The notes beneath the pieces were generated by a model that saw only the letters and a list, made by a program, of their open reading frames with translations, had not been told where the DNA came from and did not search any database. Below, piece by piece: positions 1 to 31,947 of a stretch of 64,000 nt of DNA. Made by a program: the position numbers and the translations under genes. Positions within the stretch are counted from its first letter, which is position 1; each line of letters opens with the position of its first letter. The DNA lies in NCBI GenBank assembly GCA_963815195.1, contig CAWFGE010000005.1:1-64000 (forward strand). Reading direction: 5' to 3'. The stretch comes from an uncultured Planctomycetaceae bacterium. Lineage in GTDB: Bacteria; Planctomycetota; Planctomycetia; Planctomycetales; Planctomycetaceae.

Positions 1-39
1 ACACGGAAGAGGTCACAGGTTCGAGCCCTGTAGGGACCA
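1..39 (+). tRNA. 3' half of tRNA-Val (anticodon NAC, truncated by window edge); integration target
   Basis: ACACGGAAG-AGGTC-ACAGGTTCGAGCCCTGT-AGGGACC-A gives the end of the anticodon loop, the T-arm and the 3' acceptor strand. Confidence 0.85.
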
Positions 40-1352
40 TTAAATCCTTTAGCCACAAGGACTTTTGACTCGCCACAACTCGCCGGAATGTCCTGGTTTT
101 CGAGGGGTTCGGGCGGGTCTTTCGCATTTTGGCGAGTCCCTGCGTACACTGTCTGCACCGGATTTTGCACCGCATCTTGTGCATTTACTGCACCGGATTT
201 TGCACCGCTTTTTTCTCCCGCTCCGGTTGCCCGGTCAAAGTCGGCGTTGGTCACTTGGAGATAATGCTTGGTCGCAATCGTCGGCGTGTTCCCCAACCAC
301 GCGGCCACAACGTGAATCGGATGCTCCTTCACCAACTCCGTTTCGCGGGAAGCGCGGAGGTTGTGAAACAACCGGGGCCACGGGCTTAAACCCGCTCGCT
401 TGATGATGCGCTCAAATTGCGTCCGAAGATTGCAGTTTCGCCAACCACCGGGCGTTTGGGCCGCTTCAAGATAATTCCCGCCCACGACGTATTCCGTCTC
501 GTCCTCGGCCATCTCTGAGGCTTCCAAGAGAATCGGCAGTAATTCAGGAAACAAGGGCATCACGCGGCTTTCCTTGCCTTCGTGCCGTTCGGTTTTGGGC
601 GATTGCACCACGAGTCGGTTGGAATCCCACAGGACATGCTCCCATCGGAAGGAAAGCACTTCGGAGGGACAACGCATTCCACCATACCGGCAAAGGGCAA
701 TGATGGTTCGCCAGGTGGGATTGCTGACGGCCAACAGCTTTTCCGTGTCCTCCACGGTGATGAAATGCTGCCGGTCCGATGACGTTCCCGCGGGGACTCC
801 CACACCCGTGAAAGGATTTTCCGAGATGAGTTTTCGTTTTTTGGCCATCGTGAAGAACATGCGGGCGTTCTTCAATCGCTTGCTGATGGTGGCCGACGCC
901 AGCTTTTGGCCGATGAGGAACATTTTGAAATCTTCGGCGTCCCCCTCGGTGATGCCCGCCAGGTCGCGGTTTTCCCCGAAAAACTCTTTCAGGTTCCGCA
1001 CGGCATTTCCCCAACCGATTTTCGTGGCTTCCTTCACATCAATTCGCCGGGCCACATAATCATCAAGGAACGCTCCCAGGGCCGAGACGGCTTTCATCTC
1101 GCGCGATTCCACCAAACCCACCTTGGAGAGCTTGTCATGCAGGAAATCGTCAATCTCCCCCACCCATGCAGCCGTATCCGCATCGAGGGATTGCCGGGAG
1201 AGCTTCGCCGCCAAGAGACTTTCCACGCGGCTCTTGATGGCCTCGGCATTGCGTTGAGAGATTTTGCCCAGCCGAATTGAATGCGGCTTGCCGGTTTCGG
1301 CTGTGAACTGAATCGTCCGCCGGCCGTTTGCTTGTTTCGTGATGCTCGCCAT
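1..1352 (-). CDS. Tyrosine recombinase/phage integrase; reading frame runs through att into the tRNA antisense with no stop in the window
   Basis: Manual translation from ATG 1352 (MASITKQANGRRTIQF...); catalytic motifs GMRCPSE, FHNLRASRET, LGNTPTIATKHY. Absent from the ORF track because it has no stop. Confidence 0.92.
   Translation of the reverse strand, partial: MASITKQANGRRTIQFTAETGKPHSIRLGKISQRNAEAIKSRVESLLAAKLSRQSLDADTAAWVGEIDDFLHDKLSKVGLVESREMKAVSALGAFLDDYVARRIDVKEATKIGWGNAVRNLKEFFGENRDLAGITEGDAEDFKMFLIGQKLASATISKRLKNARMFFTMAKKRKLISENPFTGVGVPAGTSSDRQHFITVEDTEKLLAVSNPTWRTIIALCRYGGMRCPSEVLSFRWEHVLWDSNRLVVQSPKTERHEGKESRVMPLFPELLPILLEASEMAEDETEYVVGGNYLEAAQTPGGWRNCNLRTQFERIIKRAGLSPWPRLFHNLRASRETELVKEHPIHVVAAWLGNTPTIATKHYLQVTNADFDRATGAGEKSGAKSGAVNAQDAVQNPVQTVYAGTRQNAKDPPEPLENQDIPASCGESKVLVAKGFNGPYRARTCDLFR
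153..211 (+). repeat. Tandem 21-bp repeats CTGCACCGGATTTTGCACCGC (153-173, 188-208); putative integrase arm sites
   Basis: Two exact copies 35 bp apart; a third near-copy lies at 4879-4910. Confidence 0.7.
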
Positions 1353-1358
1353 TCTGTT

Positions 1359-1655
1359 TCACCTTTCCTGATTCAAGGTGTCCTGGTTCTGAGAAAATAC
1401 ACCATCGGAATTCCCGTTGCGAGACTGATTGCAAAAGTCGAGGGCCGCTCGCACATCGGCCACGGTTGCGGTTTGGGCATCGAGAACAATCTCCCCCGTC
1501 TTGAGATAGGCCAGTACCGCGGGTTTGTGGATCCGAAGCCACTCAGCCAAATCGGGAGTCAGGGCCGCCTGGGGAGCGTAACGCAGCCGCTCCCCATCGG
1601 CTTTCAACCGAATGCCCAACCGGGCCAACTCGGTCAACAATTGGGGCAAGGTCAT
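1359..1655 (-). CDS. Small protein resembling the TubC N-terminal docking-domain family
   Basis: LARLGIRLKADGERLRYAPQAALTPDLAEWLRIHKPAVL; ATGA overlap with the helicase stop. Confidence 0.7.
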   Translation of the reverse strand: MTLPQLLTELARLGIRLKADGERLRYAPQAALTPDLAEWLRIHKPAVLAYLKTGEIVLDAQTATVADVRAALDFCNQSRNGNSDGVFSQNQDTLNQER

Positions 1656-3257
1656 ATCGTCCCCCACTCGCCACCATCGGCTGGTTTGGTGGGGGAATCG
1701 TCGCAGAGTCCGCCAGTCTCGCCAGAGTCCGCCAAACTATTTTCCTTGGCGAGACTGTCCGATACTGGGGGAGATTGCATCACGATGACCTTTTCCGGCC
1801 ACCGCCAAACCCAGGGGCCACCGAACCCGTTCGGCTCGGCCACCACGCCGAACTTCTTTTTCGCCCGCTCCAAGGTCCGTTCCGCAATCCCATCGGCTTT
1901 GGCCTGTTCTTTCAATTCCTTGCCGGGCCGCGGGCCGCCGGCCAGGGCATTCTTGAGCCAGTCAATTGCCTCATCGAGGGCCGATGCGGTTTGCTCCCCG
2001 TTCCCATTCTCGGCCGCCAAAGCATCATCCGCGGAGATGTCCACGGGATCCCGCTCCCAGGCGATGCGGGCCGGGTCGGGCAGGATGGAAAATGCCAGCC
2101 CTTGCCCTTGCGCGGAGAGATTGTTTTTCCCCGGCAGCAGCAGCCGGCGGGATTTGTTTTCGCGGTCGCTGGAGAGATGCCAGACCGCCCGCGCAATTCC
2201 GGTGAACGCTCGGCTTCCGAGGGCGGTATCATCGGCCGTCCCGCCGGCGCTCTTGCGTCGATGGGCCACGACAACCACCGCCGGTCCGAAACGCTCGGCC
2301 AGCTTCGCCACCGGAGCCAACACCGCCCGCACTTCGTTGTCCCGATGGGCGTCGGTCCGGCCGCCGAGATAAGAACCAATCGGGTCGATGACCACAAGCT
2401 TGCAATCGGCCACGGTATCGAGGGCCTGTTCCAAGGCGGGCAAATCGGCCAGCGTAAAAACCCTTTCCTCCGGCTTGCCATCAGAGTTCAGATAACGGAC
2501 AGCCGAGAGCAAATGCACGCCGGCCACGTCCGCAAGGTGGGCATCGAGCCGCGGGCGGATTGTGTCCCCTGGGTCATCTTCGGCGGAAATGAAAATCACC
2601 GAACCCTTGGGGCAAGCGCTCCCATCGGGCCAGGGCGTGCCGGTCGAGACGCGGGCCGCCATGTCCGTCGTCATAAACGACTTTCCTTCGCCGGGCCGCC
2701 CCACCAACAGCGTGATGCGTCCCAATGGAACCCGTCCCGGCCACAGCCAGGAAACATCCTTGGGCTGCACATCGGCCAGACACGTTAGCACCGGGCCGCC
2801 GGTTGGCTTGGCCTCTTTCACCGGGCCGATGGGCTTGTTGATGTCCAGGGCCTGCGCGATTTGTTTCTTGCAGTCATCAATCACGCGCCGGCGCTCGGCC
2901 ATCGTCCGCACTATGCCAGCATAGTATACCGCATTTTTGGTGTTCGGTGTTGTCTCGGCAGCCTGCCCAATGGGATGCACATAATCCGCTCCCAAGCGCG
3001 TGCCAAGAGTCACCATATCCACCGGGTCACCCTGCGAGTGCATCGCAACAATCTCACGGCACATGCGGGCAGTTTGGAGATTGTAGAAGTCAGCCAGCCA
3101 TTTCCGTGTTTGAGAACGGTGGGAATGCAGCGCCAGTCGATTCCACCCACAGATGGATTGGCGCATCAGGATTCCAATGGAATGATGTTCGCTTGAGATG
3201 CAGCCATTCAAGAAATTCGGTGGGAGTCGAGGGATAGGGATAGGGTACGTCAGCCAT
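1652..3257 (-). CDS. AAA_25/RepA-like helicase with DnaB N-terminal-like segment (start uncertain, possible frameshift near 3095)
   Basis: Walker A GRPGEGKS, ISAEDD, Walker B LVVIDP, HRRK, ALGSRAF; DFY...DPVDMVTL upstream. Confidence 0.8.
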
Positions 3258-3451
3258 TGCCACGTTCCTGATTTCGTGGTTCCTGAATGAGAGAAGAAGC
3301 GCGGCGGGCCTCTCAGGTAAAGGTTTTCGGGCCGTCGCCCTAGCCGCGTTGAGGCCAACGATACCGCTTCCGGGCGCAACGTTCAACAAATGCTTCGCAT
3401 TTCGCTGGTCGGTTGGTTATGTTGGGGTTGTCCATATTTCCTGGAGAACCC

Positions 3452-4352
3452 ATGCCCGAAACTCGCCTCTGGCAATGCCCCGGATGTTCCAAAACCTACA
3501 GAATCCCCGTTGACCGTGCAGATCCCGCGATTTGCCCGACGTGTAAAGACGAAGAAGAAAACGCCATCGTTGTTGTTTCTCCGCCGCCTTTGTGGGAGGA
3601 ACGCCCACAGCGTGAGCAATCGCGCCAGCCCATCATCAATACGTTGGCCGTTGTGCTGGTCGCCGTCACGGGCATTGTCATTTTCCAGAGCCTCTTTGAT
3701 GATGGCGATGATCCGGTCAAACCGAATAATGGTCTGGCCCAGCCCCAAAAACCAGTTGCCGTCCCGCGCGATGCGATTCCCAGCGATGTTTCGTTCTCGG
3801 TGATTAATTCAACCACCGTTCCCGGCATCAAACGCAGTCTTACCGTCAGGCTAAACAAAAAGGTTTCCAAGAAGACCCTCGCGGCCATCGCTCATAAGTT
3901 GAAAGTGCAGGATCCGGGGGCTTACGATCGCACCTTCATTACCTACTATCTCCCCGGAATGGCGGTGGGCAGCGGCGCTTGGGCAACAACCCATTTCAAT
4001 CCTGACATTGACGTGAGGATTCTTGGCCTAACGGCTCAGAGTGAGAAAAAAAATATTGCTTTGCCTGCCCCAACCGCGGCCGAGGTCGTCGGGCGCTGGC
4101 TCGATAGCACCCTCTTTCGCGGGAGCCGAATCGTGATCTTCCGCAAAGGGGGAAGGCTATTCGTGGAACAGACTTTCAAGGATGGCGGCCGTCTCGAAAC
4201 ACAGGTTATTGAAAAAAAGTCACCGCTTGGTCGCCGATTCGACAAGGTGGAAGGTTCGATATCTCGGAGACCATTGGGTTCTAACCCCCAACGGTGATCT
4301 TCAAATTCGTGACAACGAAGGTCTGATTGGTACGGCCAGAAAGATTCAATAG
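3452..4352 (+). CDS. Zn-ribbon, single-TM hypothetical cargo protein (frameshift near 4265)
   Basis: CPGC...CPTC, TM segment LAVVLVAVTGIVIF; C-terminus appears to continue in another frame (GDHWVLTPNGDLQIRDNEG...). Confidence 0.6.
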
Positions 4353-4354
4353 GT

Positions 4355-4771
4355 TCAGCCAAACGCGGCATCCCACATTTCTTGAAGCTTTGACGAATGT
4401 TTTCCGTTTCTGGCCAGTTCGTCAGGATTCCCGCTGCCGATGGATTCCGGCTTGCCCGTCAATAACCCCATCCCTTTCAGCACATCCATCGCTGCTTTTG
4501 CATCGCCGTCCTCAATCGCCTTTTCGACCACTTCCGTTGCCCGCTGAGCCATCCTTACCAGCCGGGCCTGCATTGCATCCCGGAGTTCCCGCCGGCCCGC
4601 ATTGTATGCGGCTTGGAATGTGAAATCCTCCCGCATCCACCGGTGCACGGTTTCGCGGGCCACTTCGCCCGCAGCCGACGCCTGGGTGATGGTCTGGCCG
4701 CGGAGCAATTCGGCAATCACGCGCTCCTGCGCGGGCGTTGGTGTGGCATTCTGTGACGATTCGTGATTCAT
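4355..4771 (-). CDS. Phage-type helix-turn-helix protein
   Basis: QERVIAELLRGQTITQASAAGEVARETVHRW HTH pattern. Confidence 0.75.
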   Translation of the reverse strand: MNHESSQNATPTPAQERVIAELLRGQTITQASAAGEVARETVHRWMREDFTFQAAYNAGRRELRDAMQARLVRMAQRATEVVEKAIEDGDAKAAMDVLKGMGLLTGKPESIGSGNPDELARNGKHSSKLQEMWDAAFG

Positions 4772-4956
4772 TGCTCACCAACTTCAACAAGATCCAAGAT
4801 TCTGGCTTTCACAGCCGGAGAGAGGGCCGGCCATCGGTCGATGAGGGTCTGCAAATCGGCATCCATCGGGGCGGTTTCTGCATTAAGTGCACCGGATTTT
4901 GCAGCGCTTTCGGGAAAACATGCCGTTTCCCCCTTGTTTTCGAGGGGTGTTCGCAT
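4768..4956 (-). other. Detached in-frame C-terminal segment of the integrase (62 aa)
   Basis: Follows the att-encoded NGPYR in the same register as the integrase; its stop overlaps the HTH start (ATGA). Confidence 0.65.
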
Positions 4957-5012
4957 CCTGTAGGGACCATTCACCGTAAGTTAGGCCAAATCAATCACTT
5001 GCATACTACCGT

Positions 5013-30158: not shown

Positions 30159-30370
30159 CAGCCGTCCCCTTTTTTGCGTGGACCCATTCGTTGCGAGCGC
30201 CGCACGACCATCGCGCGCCGTTATTGCCGGATTGAGCGGAATCGAAGCATCCGCCAGAATAACGCGCGGCGGGGGTGGGGTAAAGCACGCGGAAAGAAAC
30301 GCCTTGAGCATGAGGCGGGCGGGAAGAACTCGCGACGACGAGCGGCCGATTCGGGCGCGAGAGAAGCAAG

Positions 30371-30458
30371 CGGAAGGCATGGGATTCGAACCCACATCTC
30401 CGATGTCGGAGGCACGCATTAGCAGTGCGGCCCGGCCAACCCTATCCGGCTACCTTCC
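30371..30458 (-). tRNA. tRNA-Ser(GCT)
   Basis: CGCA-CT-GCT-AA-TGCG, long variable arm, GTTCGAATC. Confidence 0.9.
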
Positions 30459-30471
30459 AGTCTGTTTTCAA

Positions 30472-30547
30472 TCACCGAGGCGGGATTCGAACCCACAAAA
30501 ATCCCAGGTTCTCGGCCTCTTCGCGTTTCCAGTTTGCGTCCCCGGTC
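30472..30547 (-). tRNA. tRNA-Leu(GAG), degenerate
   Basis: AGG-CC-GAG-AA-CCT, GTTCGAATC; 1-72 mismatch and no U8. Confidence 0.6.
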
Positions 30548-30558
30548 AGAAGAAAAAG

Positions 30559-30627
30559 TAGCGGGTCCAGGGGTTGCACCCGGCGGGTGTGGCTTATGAG
30601 ACCTCACTGAGCACTGGCTCACCCGCG
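30559..30627 (-). tRNA. Compact tRNA with CAT anticodon (Met/Ile2), atypical
   Basis: CT-CAT-AA loop, minimal D-arm GAGC-CAGT-GCTC, T-loop TGCAAC, C1-U72 mismatch. Confidence 0.65.
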
Positions 30628-30702
30628 TCAAGTTTTTGAGTTTGCGCGTTTCGGCTTCACACGCTGAGAGGCTCTGTCAGAGCAAAAATTTGGGTTGAAA
30701 AA

Positions 30703-30765
30703 ATTAGCCGCAGGGGGGGCACCGCCCGCAGGGGGGCACCGCCCGCAGGGTGGTCCGCCCCGGTT
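30703..30765. repeat. REP-like family B copy with internal triplication
   Basis: ATTAG(CCGCAGGGGGGCACCGC)x~3 CCCGGTT. Confidence 0.65.
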
Positions 30766-30857
30766 TTCCTTGGGTTAGAGCGAGTCCGACCGAAAAGGTT
30801 CGCGCTCGCGCTTCGATTTCGTGGCGTGGAACGCTTGAGCCCTTTTCAACAATCGAG

Positions 30858-30938
30858 TGACCAAGGGGAGAGTTGAACTCCCACGCCCGAAGGCACGGCG
30901 TTCTGAGCGCCGCGTGTCTGCCATTCCACCACTTGGCC
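30858..30938 (-). tRNA. tRNA-Leu(CAG)
   Basis: CGGCG-CT-CAG-AA-CGCCG, variable arm, GTTCAACTC. Confidence 0.9.
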
Positions 30939-30946
30939 GAGAATAA

Positions 30947-31018
30947 TGACCCGTATGGGAATCGAACCCATGCCGCGAGATTGAGGGCCTCGCATCCTAG
31001 CCGCTAGAAGAACGGGCC
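30947..31018 (-). tRNA. tRNA-Glu(CTC)
   Basis: CGAGG-CC-CTC-AA-TCTCG, GTTCGATTC. Confidence 0.85.
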
Positions 31019-31058
31019 GAGTTGTTATCAGGATCAGCAATGACGGAGCGACGCGGAG

Positions 31059-31133
31059 TTGCGGGGGCAGGAATCGAACCTGCGGACGCGTGGTTCAAAG
31101 CCACGTATTTCTACCAGCAGAAACTACCCCGCA
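31059..31133 (-). tRNA. tRNA-Gln(TTG)
   Basis: CGTGG-CT-TTG-AA-CCACG, U1-A72. Confidence 0.88.
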
Positions 31134-31175
31134 TTCTGACTTCACACGCTGCTCGATTCGGCACGCCAATTTATT

Positions 31176-31277
31176 GAAATCCGAAGCACGAAATCCGAAA
31201 TCTCAAACAAATTGGGATTTGAAGATTTCCGAACATTGGAATTTGTTTCGGATTTTGGGATTCGGATTTCGGATTTT
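31176..31277. repeat. Heptamer-periodic inverted-repeat element
   Basis: (CGAAATC)-like units on the left, (GATTTCG)-like units on the right. Confidence 0.75.
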
Positions 31278-31320
31278 GCCGCACGGTGTTCGATGGACGA
31301 ATTCACGCCCGGTTTATGAG

Positions 31321-31392
31321 AGGGACGGGCGGGACTCGAACCCGTGCGCTGGTGCTTAACAGGCACCCGCTCTGCCGCTAAGCTACCGACCC
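31321..31392 (-). tRNA. tRNA-Asn(GTT)
   Basis: GGTGC-CT-GTT-AA-GCACC, GTTCGAGTC. Confidence 0.85.
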
Positions 31393-31423
31393 AAACAATT
31401 AAACTGTAAGTCGACAGTGGAGG

Positions 31424-31563
31424 GGGTGGCTGGGTGCAAAGGAATGTTCCAAGACAAAAGGAGATTTGAAGCCTGGGGCCGTGTGAGATTTTTCTCGCCC
31501 GGCCACAGCCCCAGCATTCGCAGTTCAAGCCTTATTCCAAGGGGATTTGCGCCCCAGCCACCC
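31424..31563 (-). ncRNA. Unidentified structured RNA within the tRNA array
   Basis: Terminal stem GGGTGGCTGGG/CCCAGCCACCC plus nested inner stems; strand inferred from the array. Confidence 0.55.
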
Positions 31564-31602
31564 AAACGCTTGGCGTTTGAGTCATCGTCCGTTGGCGAAA
31601 AG

Positions 31603-31677
31603 TTGCGGTGGCAGGAATCGAACCCGCGTCAAGACGGTTCAGAGCCGCCGGCCCGTACCAACACAGGCCCCACCGCA
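31603..31677 (-). tRNA. tRNA-Gln(CTG)
   Basis: GGCGG-CT-CTG-AA-CCGTC, U1-A72. Confidence 0.85.
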
Positions 31678-31681
31678 ATAG

Positions 31682-31753
31682 AGCACCCGGTGGGACTCGA
31701 ACCCACGTTGCCGCATTACGAGTGCGGTGTCCTCGCCGCTGGACGACAAGTGC
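31682..31753 (-). tRNA. tRNA-Thr(CGT)
   Basis: CCGCA-CT-CGT-AA-TGCGG, GTTCGAGTC. Confidence 0.88.
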
Positions 31754-31784
31754 CGGTTTTGGTGGAAAATCCATCCACCCGAAG

Positions 31785-31857
31785 CGCCTCGTAGGGGAAT
31801 CGAACCCCTGTCTGCGGATTGAAAGCCCGCTATCCTATGCCGTTAGAAGAACGAGGC
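31785..31857 (-). tRNA. tRNA-Glu(TTC)
   Basis: GCGGG-CT-TTC-AA-TCCGC, GTTCGATTC. Confidence 0.9.
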
Positions 31858-31875
31858 AAGTTGTCGAGTTTTGAG

Positions 31876-31947
31876 TGGGTTGAGAGGTGCTCGAACCCTC
31901 GTCTGCGGCTTTTCAGGCCGCCGCTTTACCGTCTAAGCTATCAACCC
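31876..31947 (-). tRNA. tRNA-Phe(GAA), first gene of the array
   Basis: GCGGC-CT-GAA-AA-GCCGC; slightly irregular T-arm. Confidence 0.85.

Follow-up and report, generated by a model that had tools for sequence, protein, structure and literature searches.

The question raised by this locus is what becomes of an integrase gene when the attachment (att) site at which its product recombines lies within its own coding sequence, and whether the 3′ portion that integration detaches is a genuine part of the protein. The window, that is, the whole stretch of DNA analysed here, is the first 64 kb (64,000 nucleotides, nt) of contig C5 (CAWFGE010000005.1) in the genome of an uncultured Planctomycetaceae bacterium (GCA_963815195.1; 8.87 Mb in 25 contigs). 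Window positions 42-4956 are best explained as a 4.9-kb integrative element whose own tyrosine integrase inserted it into a tRNA-Val gene, at the 3′ end. The integrase gene spans the att site of the free element (attP), and excision would restore a longer protein whose C-terminal tail is constrained as protein; we assign a probability of roughly 0.8 to this reading as a whole.

The ends of the element are marked by the exact 15-nt direct repeat CCTGTAGGGACCATT, which occurs in the 64-kb window only at 27-41 and 4957-4971 and did not occur in any of 100 shuffles of the window. The likeness around this core reaches 23 nt at 87% identity (19-41 versus 4949-4971). A complete tRNA-Val(CAC) gene elsewhere in the genome has a 3′ half (C10:31629-31667) with which positions 1-39 agree at 100% identity, and the first base of the window, which is also the first base of contig C5, falls within the tRNA-Val anticodon loop. 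The missing 5′ half of this tRNA gene is on none of the genome's other contig ends. Five reading frames lie between the two core copies, four on the minus strand and one on the plus strand. The features that concern the split gene are as follows.

Positions 1-39, plus strand: 3′ half of the tRNA-Val gene, cut by the contig start; the side of the near junction derived from the chromosomal att site (attB).
Positions 27-41: tRNA-proximal copy of the att core, an exact 15-nt repeat with two copies in the window and none expected.
Positions 42-1352, minus strand: tyrosine integrase, body and linker coded by the P arm of attP; 437 amino acids (aa) up to the core, continuing as integrated through 3-41 into the tRNA antisense.
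Positions 4768-4956, minus strand: detached integrase 3′ end of 62 codons and a stop; a stretch coded by the P′ arm, then a predicted helix-loop-helix tail (DADLQTLIDRWPAL...ILDLV).
Positions 4957-4971: distal copy of the att core, the same exact 15-nt repeat with two copies in the window and none expected.

The integrase frame, read on the minus strand from the ATG at 1352, has no stop through the near core to the window edge (450 aa), and its end as integrated reads ...KGF NGPYR ARTCDLFR, in which NGPYR is the translation of the core at 27-41, about 70 codons past the KHYLQ motif. At the distal core, the same register reads NGPYR MRTPLENKGE ... GEQ and ends in a stop at 4768. When the two core copies are joined by coordinates with a script, the first stop follows at residue 504 (442 + 62). 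The initial annotation of this DNA had described a stopless integrase frame that crosses the core into the tRNA antisense, and a joined frame of 504 aa; reading the frame confirms the former and the coordinate join reproduces the latter. The integrase matches Pfam Phage_int_SAM_5 (PF13102) at residues 94-181 and Phage_integrase (PF00589) at residues 197-368 (7.4e-10), as well as the PHROG 1 integrase family (1.4e-32). The attP core thus lies inside the integrase frame, downstream of the catalytic tyrosine, and the Pfam catalytic domain is complete by residue 368. Integration swaps the integrase C-terminus for host-derived codons, and joining the cores restores the tail of the 504-aa form.

Such a join might in principle be fortuitous, the repeat marking no more than a normal tRNA island with an integrase frame that runs into the tRNA by accident. 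A shared register is expected about one time in three for a single island, and GC-rich genomes yield long open frames, such as a 468-aa frame around the tail in locus L093. Relatives of the element were therefore compared. A tail model made from the 150 best tail matches and an integrase model made from the integrase alignment were run over 80 genome loci of relatives and slices of the element's own genome, and nine sources carried a tail match. All six islands that have a clean direct repeat beside both the integrase end and the tail are in frame with no stop, giving joined lengths of 504, 509, 502, 524, 510 and 479 aa. A second set, in which tail and integrase matches were paired across 401 Planctomycetota genomes, comprises 13 pairs on one contig and strand, 12 of them in frame by script. 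For the 13th (G190), the script took a longer upstream repeat; if the core directly beside the tail is used instead, VGQAGLE is read in both frames and this pair, too, is in frame. Conservation of the register in homologous islands, to which the initial annotation had tied its proposal, is therefore seen in all 19 cognate pairs with an identifiable core, without stops and with varied cores and tRNAs, against about one third by chance; the genomes are related and not independent samples, so that 19/19 carries no P value. Because all 19 pairs are in frame, the tail forms a family of 227 clusters and naturally joined forms exist (see below), the in-frame join is not due to chance, and the counts refute that explanation.

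The islands span 3.7 to about 21 kb (the lengths for G156 and G118b being taken from genome coordinates). A paralogous 13.2-kb island lies in the same genome (C15:260707-273928); compared with those of the window, its integrase shows 70% and its tail 67% identity, its 19-nt core is a different one, and the distance between its core copies, 13203 nt, can be divided by 3, giving a joined frame of 509 aa. The core of this island, AAAAGCGGAGAGAGGGGGA, is present at both ends and resembles the antisense end of tRNA-Ser (loci L002 and L007), and ARAGORN detected no tRNA at the two ends. About 200 nt past the integrase end begins a frame whose N-terminus resembles that of a serine recombinase. The location may be a secondary site or the remnant of a tandem array. 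In two other islands, L017 (a 104-nt repeat) and L153 (G190, about 90 nt with one indel), the end repeats extend past the tRNA-derived core into the integrase 3′ coding part, as though the element had inserted next to what was left of an earlier, related one. The tails of L150 (G041) and L155 (G343) keep the arm-coded part, and their helix part is unrecognisable (…GWMLARPCP… and …LAWMLSEPRG…); these may represent a divergent type or decay.

The integrase belongs to a very large family, with 4794 homologues at E ≤ 0.001 among 7999 scored, those with names being mostly from Pirellulales metagenome-assembled genomes. Among the best 120 homologues, most C-termini are peptides of the sort that tRNA T-arms give when translated in antisense. 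In 65 of 80 genome loci (65 of the 76 that can be assessed), ARAGORN calls an antisense tRNA gene that is overlapped by the integrase 3′ end; the others comprise four that end no more than 60 nt from the frame, four with a non-overlapped tRNA within 200 nt and seven with no tRNA. Thirteen kinds of tRNA serve as targets among these genome loci. The tail is likewise widespread, with 227 representative clusters (50% identity) at E ≤ 0.001 among 1.84 billion proteins, and the tail model matches 88 of the 401 Planctomycetota genomes searched. Two further integrase paralogues of the family are encoded in the element's own genome (C20:232000-233166 and C10:224458-225597; 42-44% identical), and the searches run gave no tail match on the C20 and C10 contigs.

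Body, core and tail occur in a single frame in P0008 (490 aa) and P0075 (496 aa), which are among the 120 best integrase homologues, and in P0168 (504 aa), which is among the 150 best tail matches. Such joined forms are also present in five of 25 IMG/VR loci (L119/L120, L122/L123 and L130). L119 and L120 are two 35.7-kb contigs from different samples that are identical over 11.6 kb and have different start points, which suggests that this genome is circular or permuted. In a PHROG scan of the large frames, L123 matched an exonuclease, methyltransferases and, weakly, a virion protein, L130 matched several families of unknown function, and L120 gave no match; because of these results, the joined-form records are called viral-collection contigs here and not proven phages.

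The way in which the tail is annotated could also be taken to mean that it is an independent small gene beside the distal att site, the integrase merely having no stop before the tRNA. Of the best 150 tail matches, 149 are short called proteins of 49-212 aa whose N-termini translate core peptides, and many of these begin with a methionine at the tRNA-derived core (MAEVHGNRT, MAGTGFE), which arises where the base after the CCA of the tRNA yields ATGG on the antisense strand. A gene of its own, however, would not need to share the register of the integrase, yet all 19 cognate pairs do so without a stop, and viral-collection contigs encode the joined protein in one frame. Furthermore, the stretch from the core to the helices is without protein-type constraint, and there is no conserved start: the window offers no in-frame candidates other than a GTG within the flanking chromosome and an ATG whose counterpart in the C15 island is ACT. 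As integrated, the tail has no conserved start of its own, and we regard an independent gene as very unlikely.

The sequences on both sides of the core contain further repeats, which lie within the joined reading frame.

Positions 96-108: P-side copy of a second repeated motif, GTTTTCGAGGGGT, translated as PLEN.
Positions 154-173 and 189-208: two arm-type-like direct repeats TGCACCGGATTTTGCACCGC, inside the integrase frame (P side).
Positions 4888-4907: third arm-type-like repeat, P′ side, coded as AAKSGAL.
Positions 4936-4948: the other copy of GTTTTCGAGGGGT, separated from the core by 8 nt and again translated as PLEN.

The 20-mer TGCACCGGATTTTGCA(C/G)CGC has three copies in the window versus 0.02 expected, two on the integrase side and one on the tail side of the core. 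GTTTTCGAGGGGT has two copies versus 0.13 expected, and one of 100 shuffles also gave two. The attP of the element, some 280 bp that run from 208 across the core and on to 4888, is wholly coding and occupies the 3′ part of the integrase gene; it contains two P-arm repeats, a short motif to either side, the 15-nt core itself and a single P′-arm repeat. The repeats at 154-173 and 189-208 fall in different frames, which yield SGAKSGA and AVQNPVQ, and the same two-frame reading of the integrase-side repeats is found in C15 and L063. These repeats, which flank the core and are conserved at the level of DNA, are putative arm-type sites for binding by the N-terminal domain of the integrase.

It might accordingly be argued that the region past the core is conserved only as DNA, that is, as the P′ arm of attP with sites for the integrase or accessory proteins, and that its translation is a by-product. 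The translation of the arm-type repeats in two frames fits this view, as does a comparison of the window with the C15 island. For the catalytic domain, the synonymous divergence (dS) is 1.14 and the ratio of non-synonymous to synonymous change (omega) is 0.10; for the linker before the core, these values are 0.31 and 1.7, and for the first 33 tail codons they are 0.11 and 1.6. Because dS is low and omega is above 1 in the stretches that flank the core, these are held as DNA and not as protein. In a set of 38 tails, the part before the helices has entropies of 1.34, 1.22 and 1.41 bits at codon positions 1, 2 and 3, and its conserved, arm-coded positions use nearly single codons (GCA, GAA, TCC). 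The helix part, the last ~30 codons, differs: its entropies are 1.17, 0.83 and 1.61 bits, position 2 being the most conserved and position 3 the freest, and its conserved leucine, proline, isoleucine and valine residues are each spread over 3 to 6 synonymous codons, the invariant leucine using six. This codon pattern is that of selection on protein for the last ~30 residues of the tail (helix-loop-helix with WPxL), as judged from the aligned sequences, and structure prediction folds the tail as two confident helices. The approximately 100 residues before the helical tail are, by the same comparison, translated att DNA (core and arm-type repeats). A role as DNA only is thus the right explanation for the linker and not for the tail; as an account of the whole region past the core, it is unlikely.

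The full-length structural model is that of the relative P0075, a natural joined protein, and not of the window's own protein. In this model (mean predicted local distance difference test score, pLDDT, 82.7), three N-terminal strands and a helix are predicted to precede the core-binding and catalytic domains. The predicted N-terminal domain comprises strands at residues 2-6, 12-17 and 23-29 and a helix at 33-52 (pLDDT 96-97); residues 387-463 have no confident structure (pLDDT below 50), and two tail helices are predicted at 466-473 and 480-495 (pLDDT about 88). When the tail of the window is modelled alone, its first 37 residues are predicted poorly, and helices come after them at 39-46 and 53-66. 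In a fold search, the P0075 model is closest to lambda integrase at full length (1z1b_A, E 8.6e-11), with the Tn1549 integrase next, and the integrase is predicted to be a lambda-Int-like, heterobivalent enzyme with an arm-binding N-terminal domain. A complex prediction of tail residues 30-68 with integrase body residues 1-380 scored 0.00, which is no verdict on contact either way. The tail matched no family in Pfam or PHROGs, and a search of the ESM Atlas with its helix part returned only unnamed planctomycete clusters with scores below 0.9. The final full-length alignment was made without orphan tails; when these were included, MAFFT placed the tail WPxL on the WPRLF motif of the integrase.

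Several observations weigh against the view that the integrase gene spans attP and ends in a protein-constrained tail. The left flank is missing, so that the real end of the integrated protein, which lies beyond the contig edge, cannot be read from contig C5; with the C10 tRNA as a stand-in, a stop follows five codons further. The tail DNA of the window and C15 is nearly identical through WPAL, with one change in about 44 nt where dS elsewhere exceeds 1, as would also be expected if this region were held as DNA only. This pair alone cannot separate constraint on protein from constraint on DNA or from recent exchange, and the case for the protein level therefore rests on the 38-tail set. About nine distant integrases of viral loci (for example, L125-L127, L132, L134, L135 and L139) have a stop of their own shortly past the catalytic domain; it follows that the fold does not need the tail, which is an accessory. 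A tight downstream junction, from -4 to +5 nt of the tail stop, is present at only about 13 of 42 tails, and the genes there differ. In L063, the tail lies 11 nt after an integrase stop and in another frame, and in G396 (L148, C39:70600-82000) an integrase A abuts a tail B in a different frame; both misfits look like tandem junctions of non-cognate elements. The two integrases of G396 translate one core in different registers, IFPRGF versus YSREDS, and these tandem islands suggest that tails are co-adapted to the register of their own integrase. L009 and L061 have weak or partial tail matches with no core nearby, even at two mismatches, and are not counted. Finally, read mining for the attP junction, which the initial annotation had proposed as a check, revealed no 42/4956 joint, excised circle or empty site in four public runs (Logan contigs), which consist of short, low-depth pieces that are uninformative either way; the best run contained 0.33 of the query words, and no RNA run was among them.

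The remaining genes of the element are the following.

Positions 1359-1667, minus strand: small protein with a TubC_N-like domain (Pfam TubC_N 9.2e-14); likely ATG at 1655.
Positions 1652-3379, minus strand: primase/helicase-like replication protein with an uncertain true start (in Pfam, AAA_25 at 1.6e-35 and, weakly, DnaB N-terminal).
Positions 3413-4297, plus strand: frame on the opposite strand, function unassigned, with CxxC...CxxC near the N-terminus.
Positions 4355-4771, minus strand: 138-aa helix-turn-helix (HTH) protein, small-terminase-like, whose ATG overlaps the tail stop (ATGA).

The PHROG matches of the 1652-3379 protein are DNA polymerase/primase and primase/helicase families, and the 3413-4297 protein gave no match in Pfam and PHROG scans. 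A 99-aa frame that begins MADVPYPYP (3090-3389) overlaps the first ~95 codons of the primase/helicase frame in another register, and the 5′ end of the latter may contain a frameshift or have a later true start. The stop of the primase/helicase gene overlaps the ATG of the small TubC_N-like gene (ATGA at 1652-1655), the stop of which lies 6 nt before the integrase ATG (gap 1353-1358); this style of packing matches that of the junction between the tail and the terminase-like gene. With an integrase, a primase/helicase, a small-terminase-like HTH protein and two small unknown proteins in 4.9 kb, the element resembles a phage satellite or a small integrative replicon more than a prophage. Nine tRNA genes (Ser, Leu, Glu, Gln, Asn, Gln, Thr, Glu, Phe), clustered on the minus strand at 30370-31947, have no relation to the island.

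The overlap of the tail stop with the start of the 138-aa gene, as given in the initial annotation, is confirmed (TGA 4770-4768 versus ATG 4771-4769). The protein, which had been described there simply as an HTH protein, scores as small-terminase-like, with weak matches to Pfam Sf6_terminase (2.4e-6, 28.0 bits versus a cut-off of 27) and to three PHROG small-terminase families (2e-4 to 8e-4). The further proposal that recombination controls expression of this HTH gene does not extend to the family: coupling is found at about 13 of 42 tails, none of the tightly coupled downstream frames matches the 138-aa protein of the window (phmmer, E ≤ 0.01), and a Pfam scan of 14 downstream frames returned only one HTH_17. 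Circle-dependent expression of the 138-aa gene may be a reasonable idea for the element in the window and is not a family feature.

In the model that follows from the split gene, the tyrosine integrase of the element inserts 42-4956 into the tRNA-Val gene at its 3′ end, and the excised circle encodes a 504-aa integrase in which four parts succeed one another: some 372 aa of folded body; a linker, some 100 aa long, that is translated att DNA and, in a relative, predicted to be disordered; the core, read as NGPYR; and a conserved helix-loop-helix tail of about 30 aa. Integration cuts the gene at the core, so that the resident copy keeps its catalytic domain and ends in tRNA-antisense residues, and the tail is stranded 4.9 kb away at the other junction. 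By analogy with IntP and IntX of myxophage Mx8, the two integrase forms may differ in activity or site preference, such that the state of the DNA would feed back on recombination; the tail may, by the same analogy, change activity, assembly or site choice. On the circle, four minus-strand genes (primase/helicase, small protein, integrase and small-terminase-like) would form one packed operon with junctions of ATGA, 6 nt and ATGA, which integration would break. A role of the tail as a degradation tag is unlikely because the extreme C-termini vary: past the second helix, the ends of the tails differ in length and sequence and share no tag. The tail could conceivably be a built-in directionality device, in which only the excised DNA encodes the full integrase, the tailed form favours integration and the tail-less form favours excision or remains quiet, with no separate directionality factor; rebuilding of the operon on the circle would then also turn on the small-terminase-like gene and time a satellite-like hijack of helper-phage packaging. 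This extension is tentative and rather doubtful.

Among known systems, Mx8, which integrates into a tRNA gene, offers the closest parallel. Like IntP/IntX of Mx8 (and also the integrase of Mx9), the protein considered here is a bacterial tyrosine integrase with attP in the 3′ part of its own coding sequence. In Mx8, attP lies within int, and integration gives the gene a new 3′ end and changes the specificity of an enzyme that stays active (PMC6070905; PMC4383910, citing Tojo 1996). Integrases that extend across attP are also allowed for by the Islander authors (PMC4383910). On the strength of these sources, the initial annotation was apt in naming Mx8 as a precedent (PMC6070905; PMC4383910). 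A tblastn search against 50,697 phage records gave no myxophage match (E ≤ 0.001 for the integrase and E ≤ 1 for the tail), and the likeness to Mx8 claimed here is one of layout, without a claim of common descent. Unlike Mx8, the present case involves a very large Planctomycetota family with at least 13 kinds of target tRNA and a conserved helix-loop-helix tail.

SSV1, which the initial annotation had also named, is a poor fit. In archaeal "suicidal" integrases such as those of SSV1/2, pTN3 and pT26-2 (Pfam PF16795), the att site is inside the integrase gene, and integrase and site form a compact module; integration splits the gene into an N-terminal part and a catalytic C-terminal part, both of which are taken as inactive in a review (PMC8371274). 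The att site within the integrase gene is shared, whereas the gene in the window is cut after the catalytic domain (197-368), which stays intact in the integrated state, and the Pfam matches are PF00589 and PF13102 only, with no Phage_integr_3 (PF16795). In the same review, gene-disrupting integrases are held to be exclusive to archaea (PMC8371274), a statement that the integrase of the window does not contradict.

Integration-dependent immunity provides another likeness, in that attP lies in a gene at a tRNA target and a C-terminal piece is lost on integration, which alters how the protein behaves. In mycobacteriophages BPs and Brujita, attP is in the repressor gene and integration at a tRNA removes a C-terminal degradation tag (PMC9262239); the preprint on corynephage CyranoPS reports integration-dependent immunity of the same kind (bioRxiv 10.64898/2026.10.29.762952). 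Here, in contrast, the gene encodes the integrase and not a repressor, no ssrA-like tag is shared, and arm-type-like repeats lie in frame, whereas those systems are without arm-type repeats. With lambda integrase, the protein shares a predicted three-domain build with an arm-binding N-terminal domain, and repeats that flank the core on either side. The attP of lambda is located outside int; here, unlike lambda, a linker coded by attP and a tail after it are added.

No description of this integrase family, its tail or its layout in Planctomycetota was found in the literature searched, which did not cover subscription journals. The family is a further, very large group of the Mx8 IntP/IntX kind, and not of the archaeal suicidal kind. 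Integrases that span attP have so far been treated as oddities (Mx8, Mx9, SSV), and here this arrangement is the rule for a family of thousands, the layout occurring across Planctomycetota, in phage-like contigs as well as in small islands. For gene callers, the consequence is that the integrase is given a false end in the tRNA antisense and the tail is annotated as an orphan "hypothetical protein", to which 227 clusters match; for those who map islands, the tail can serve as a precise marker of the far end of the island. The family also constitutes a natural series in which to ask how a distant C-terminal module affects a tyrosine recombinase, and what allows a reading frame to be made up of DNA sites bound by protein, one 18-mer being read here in two frames.

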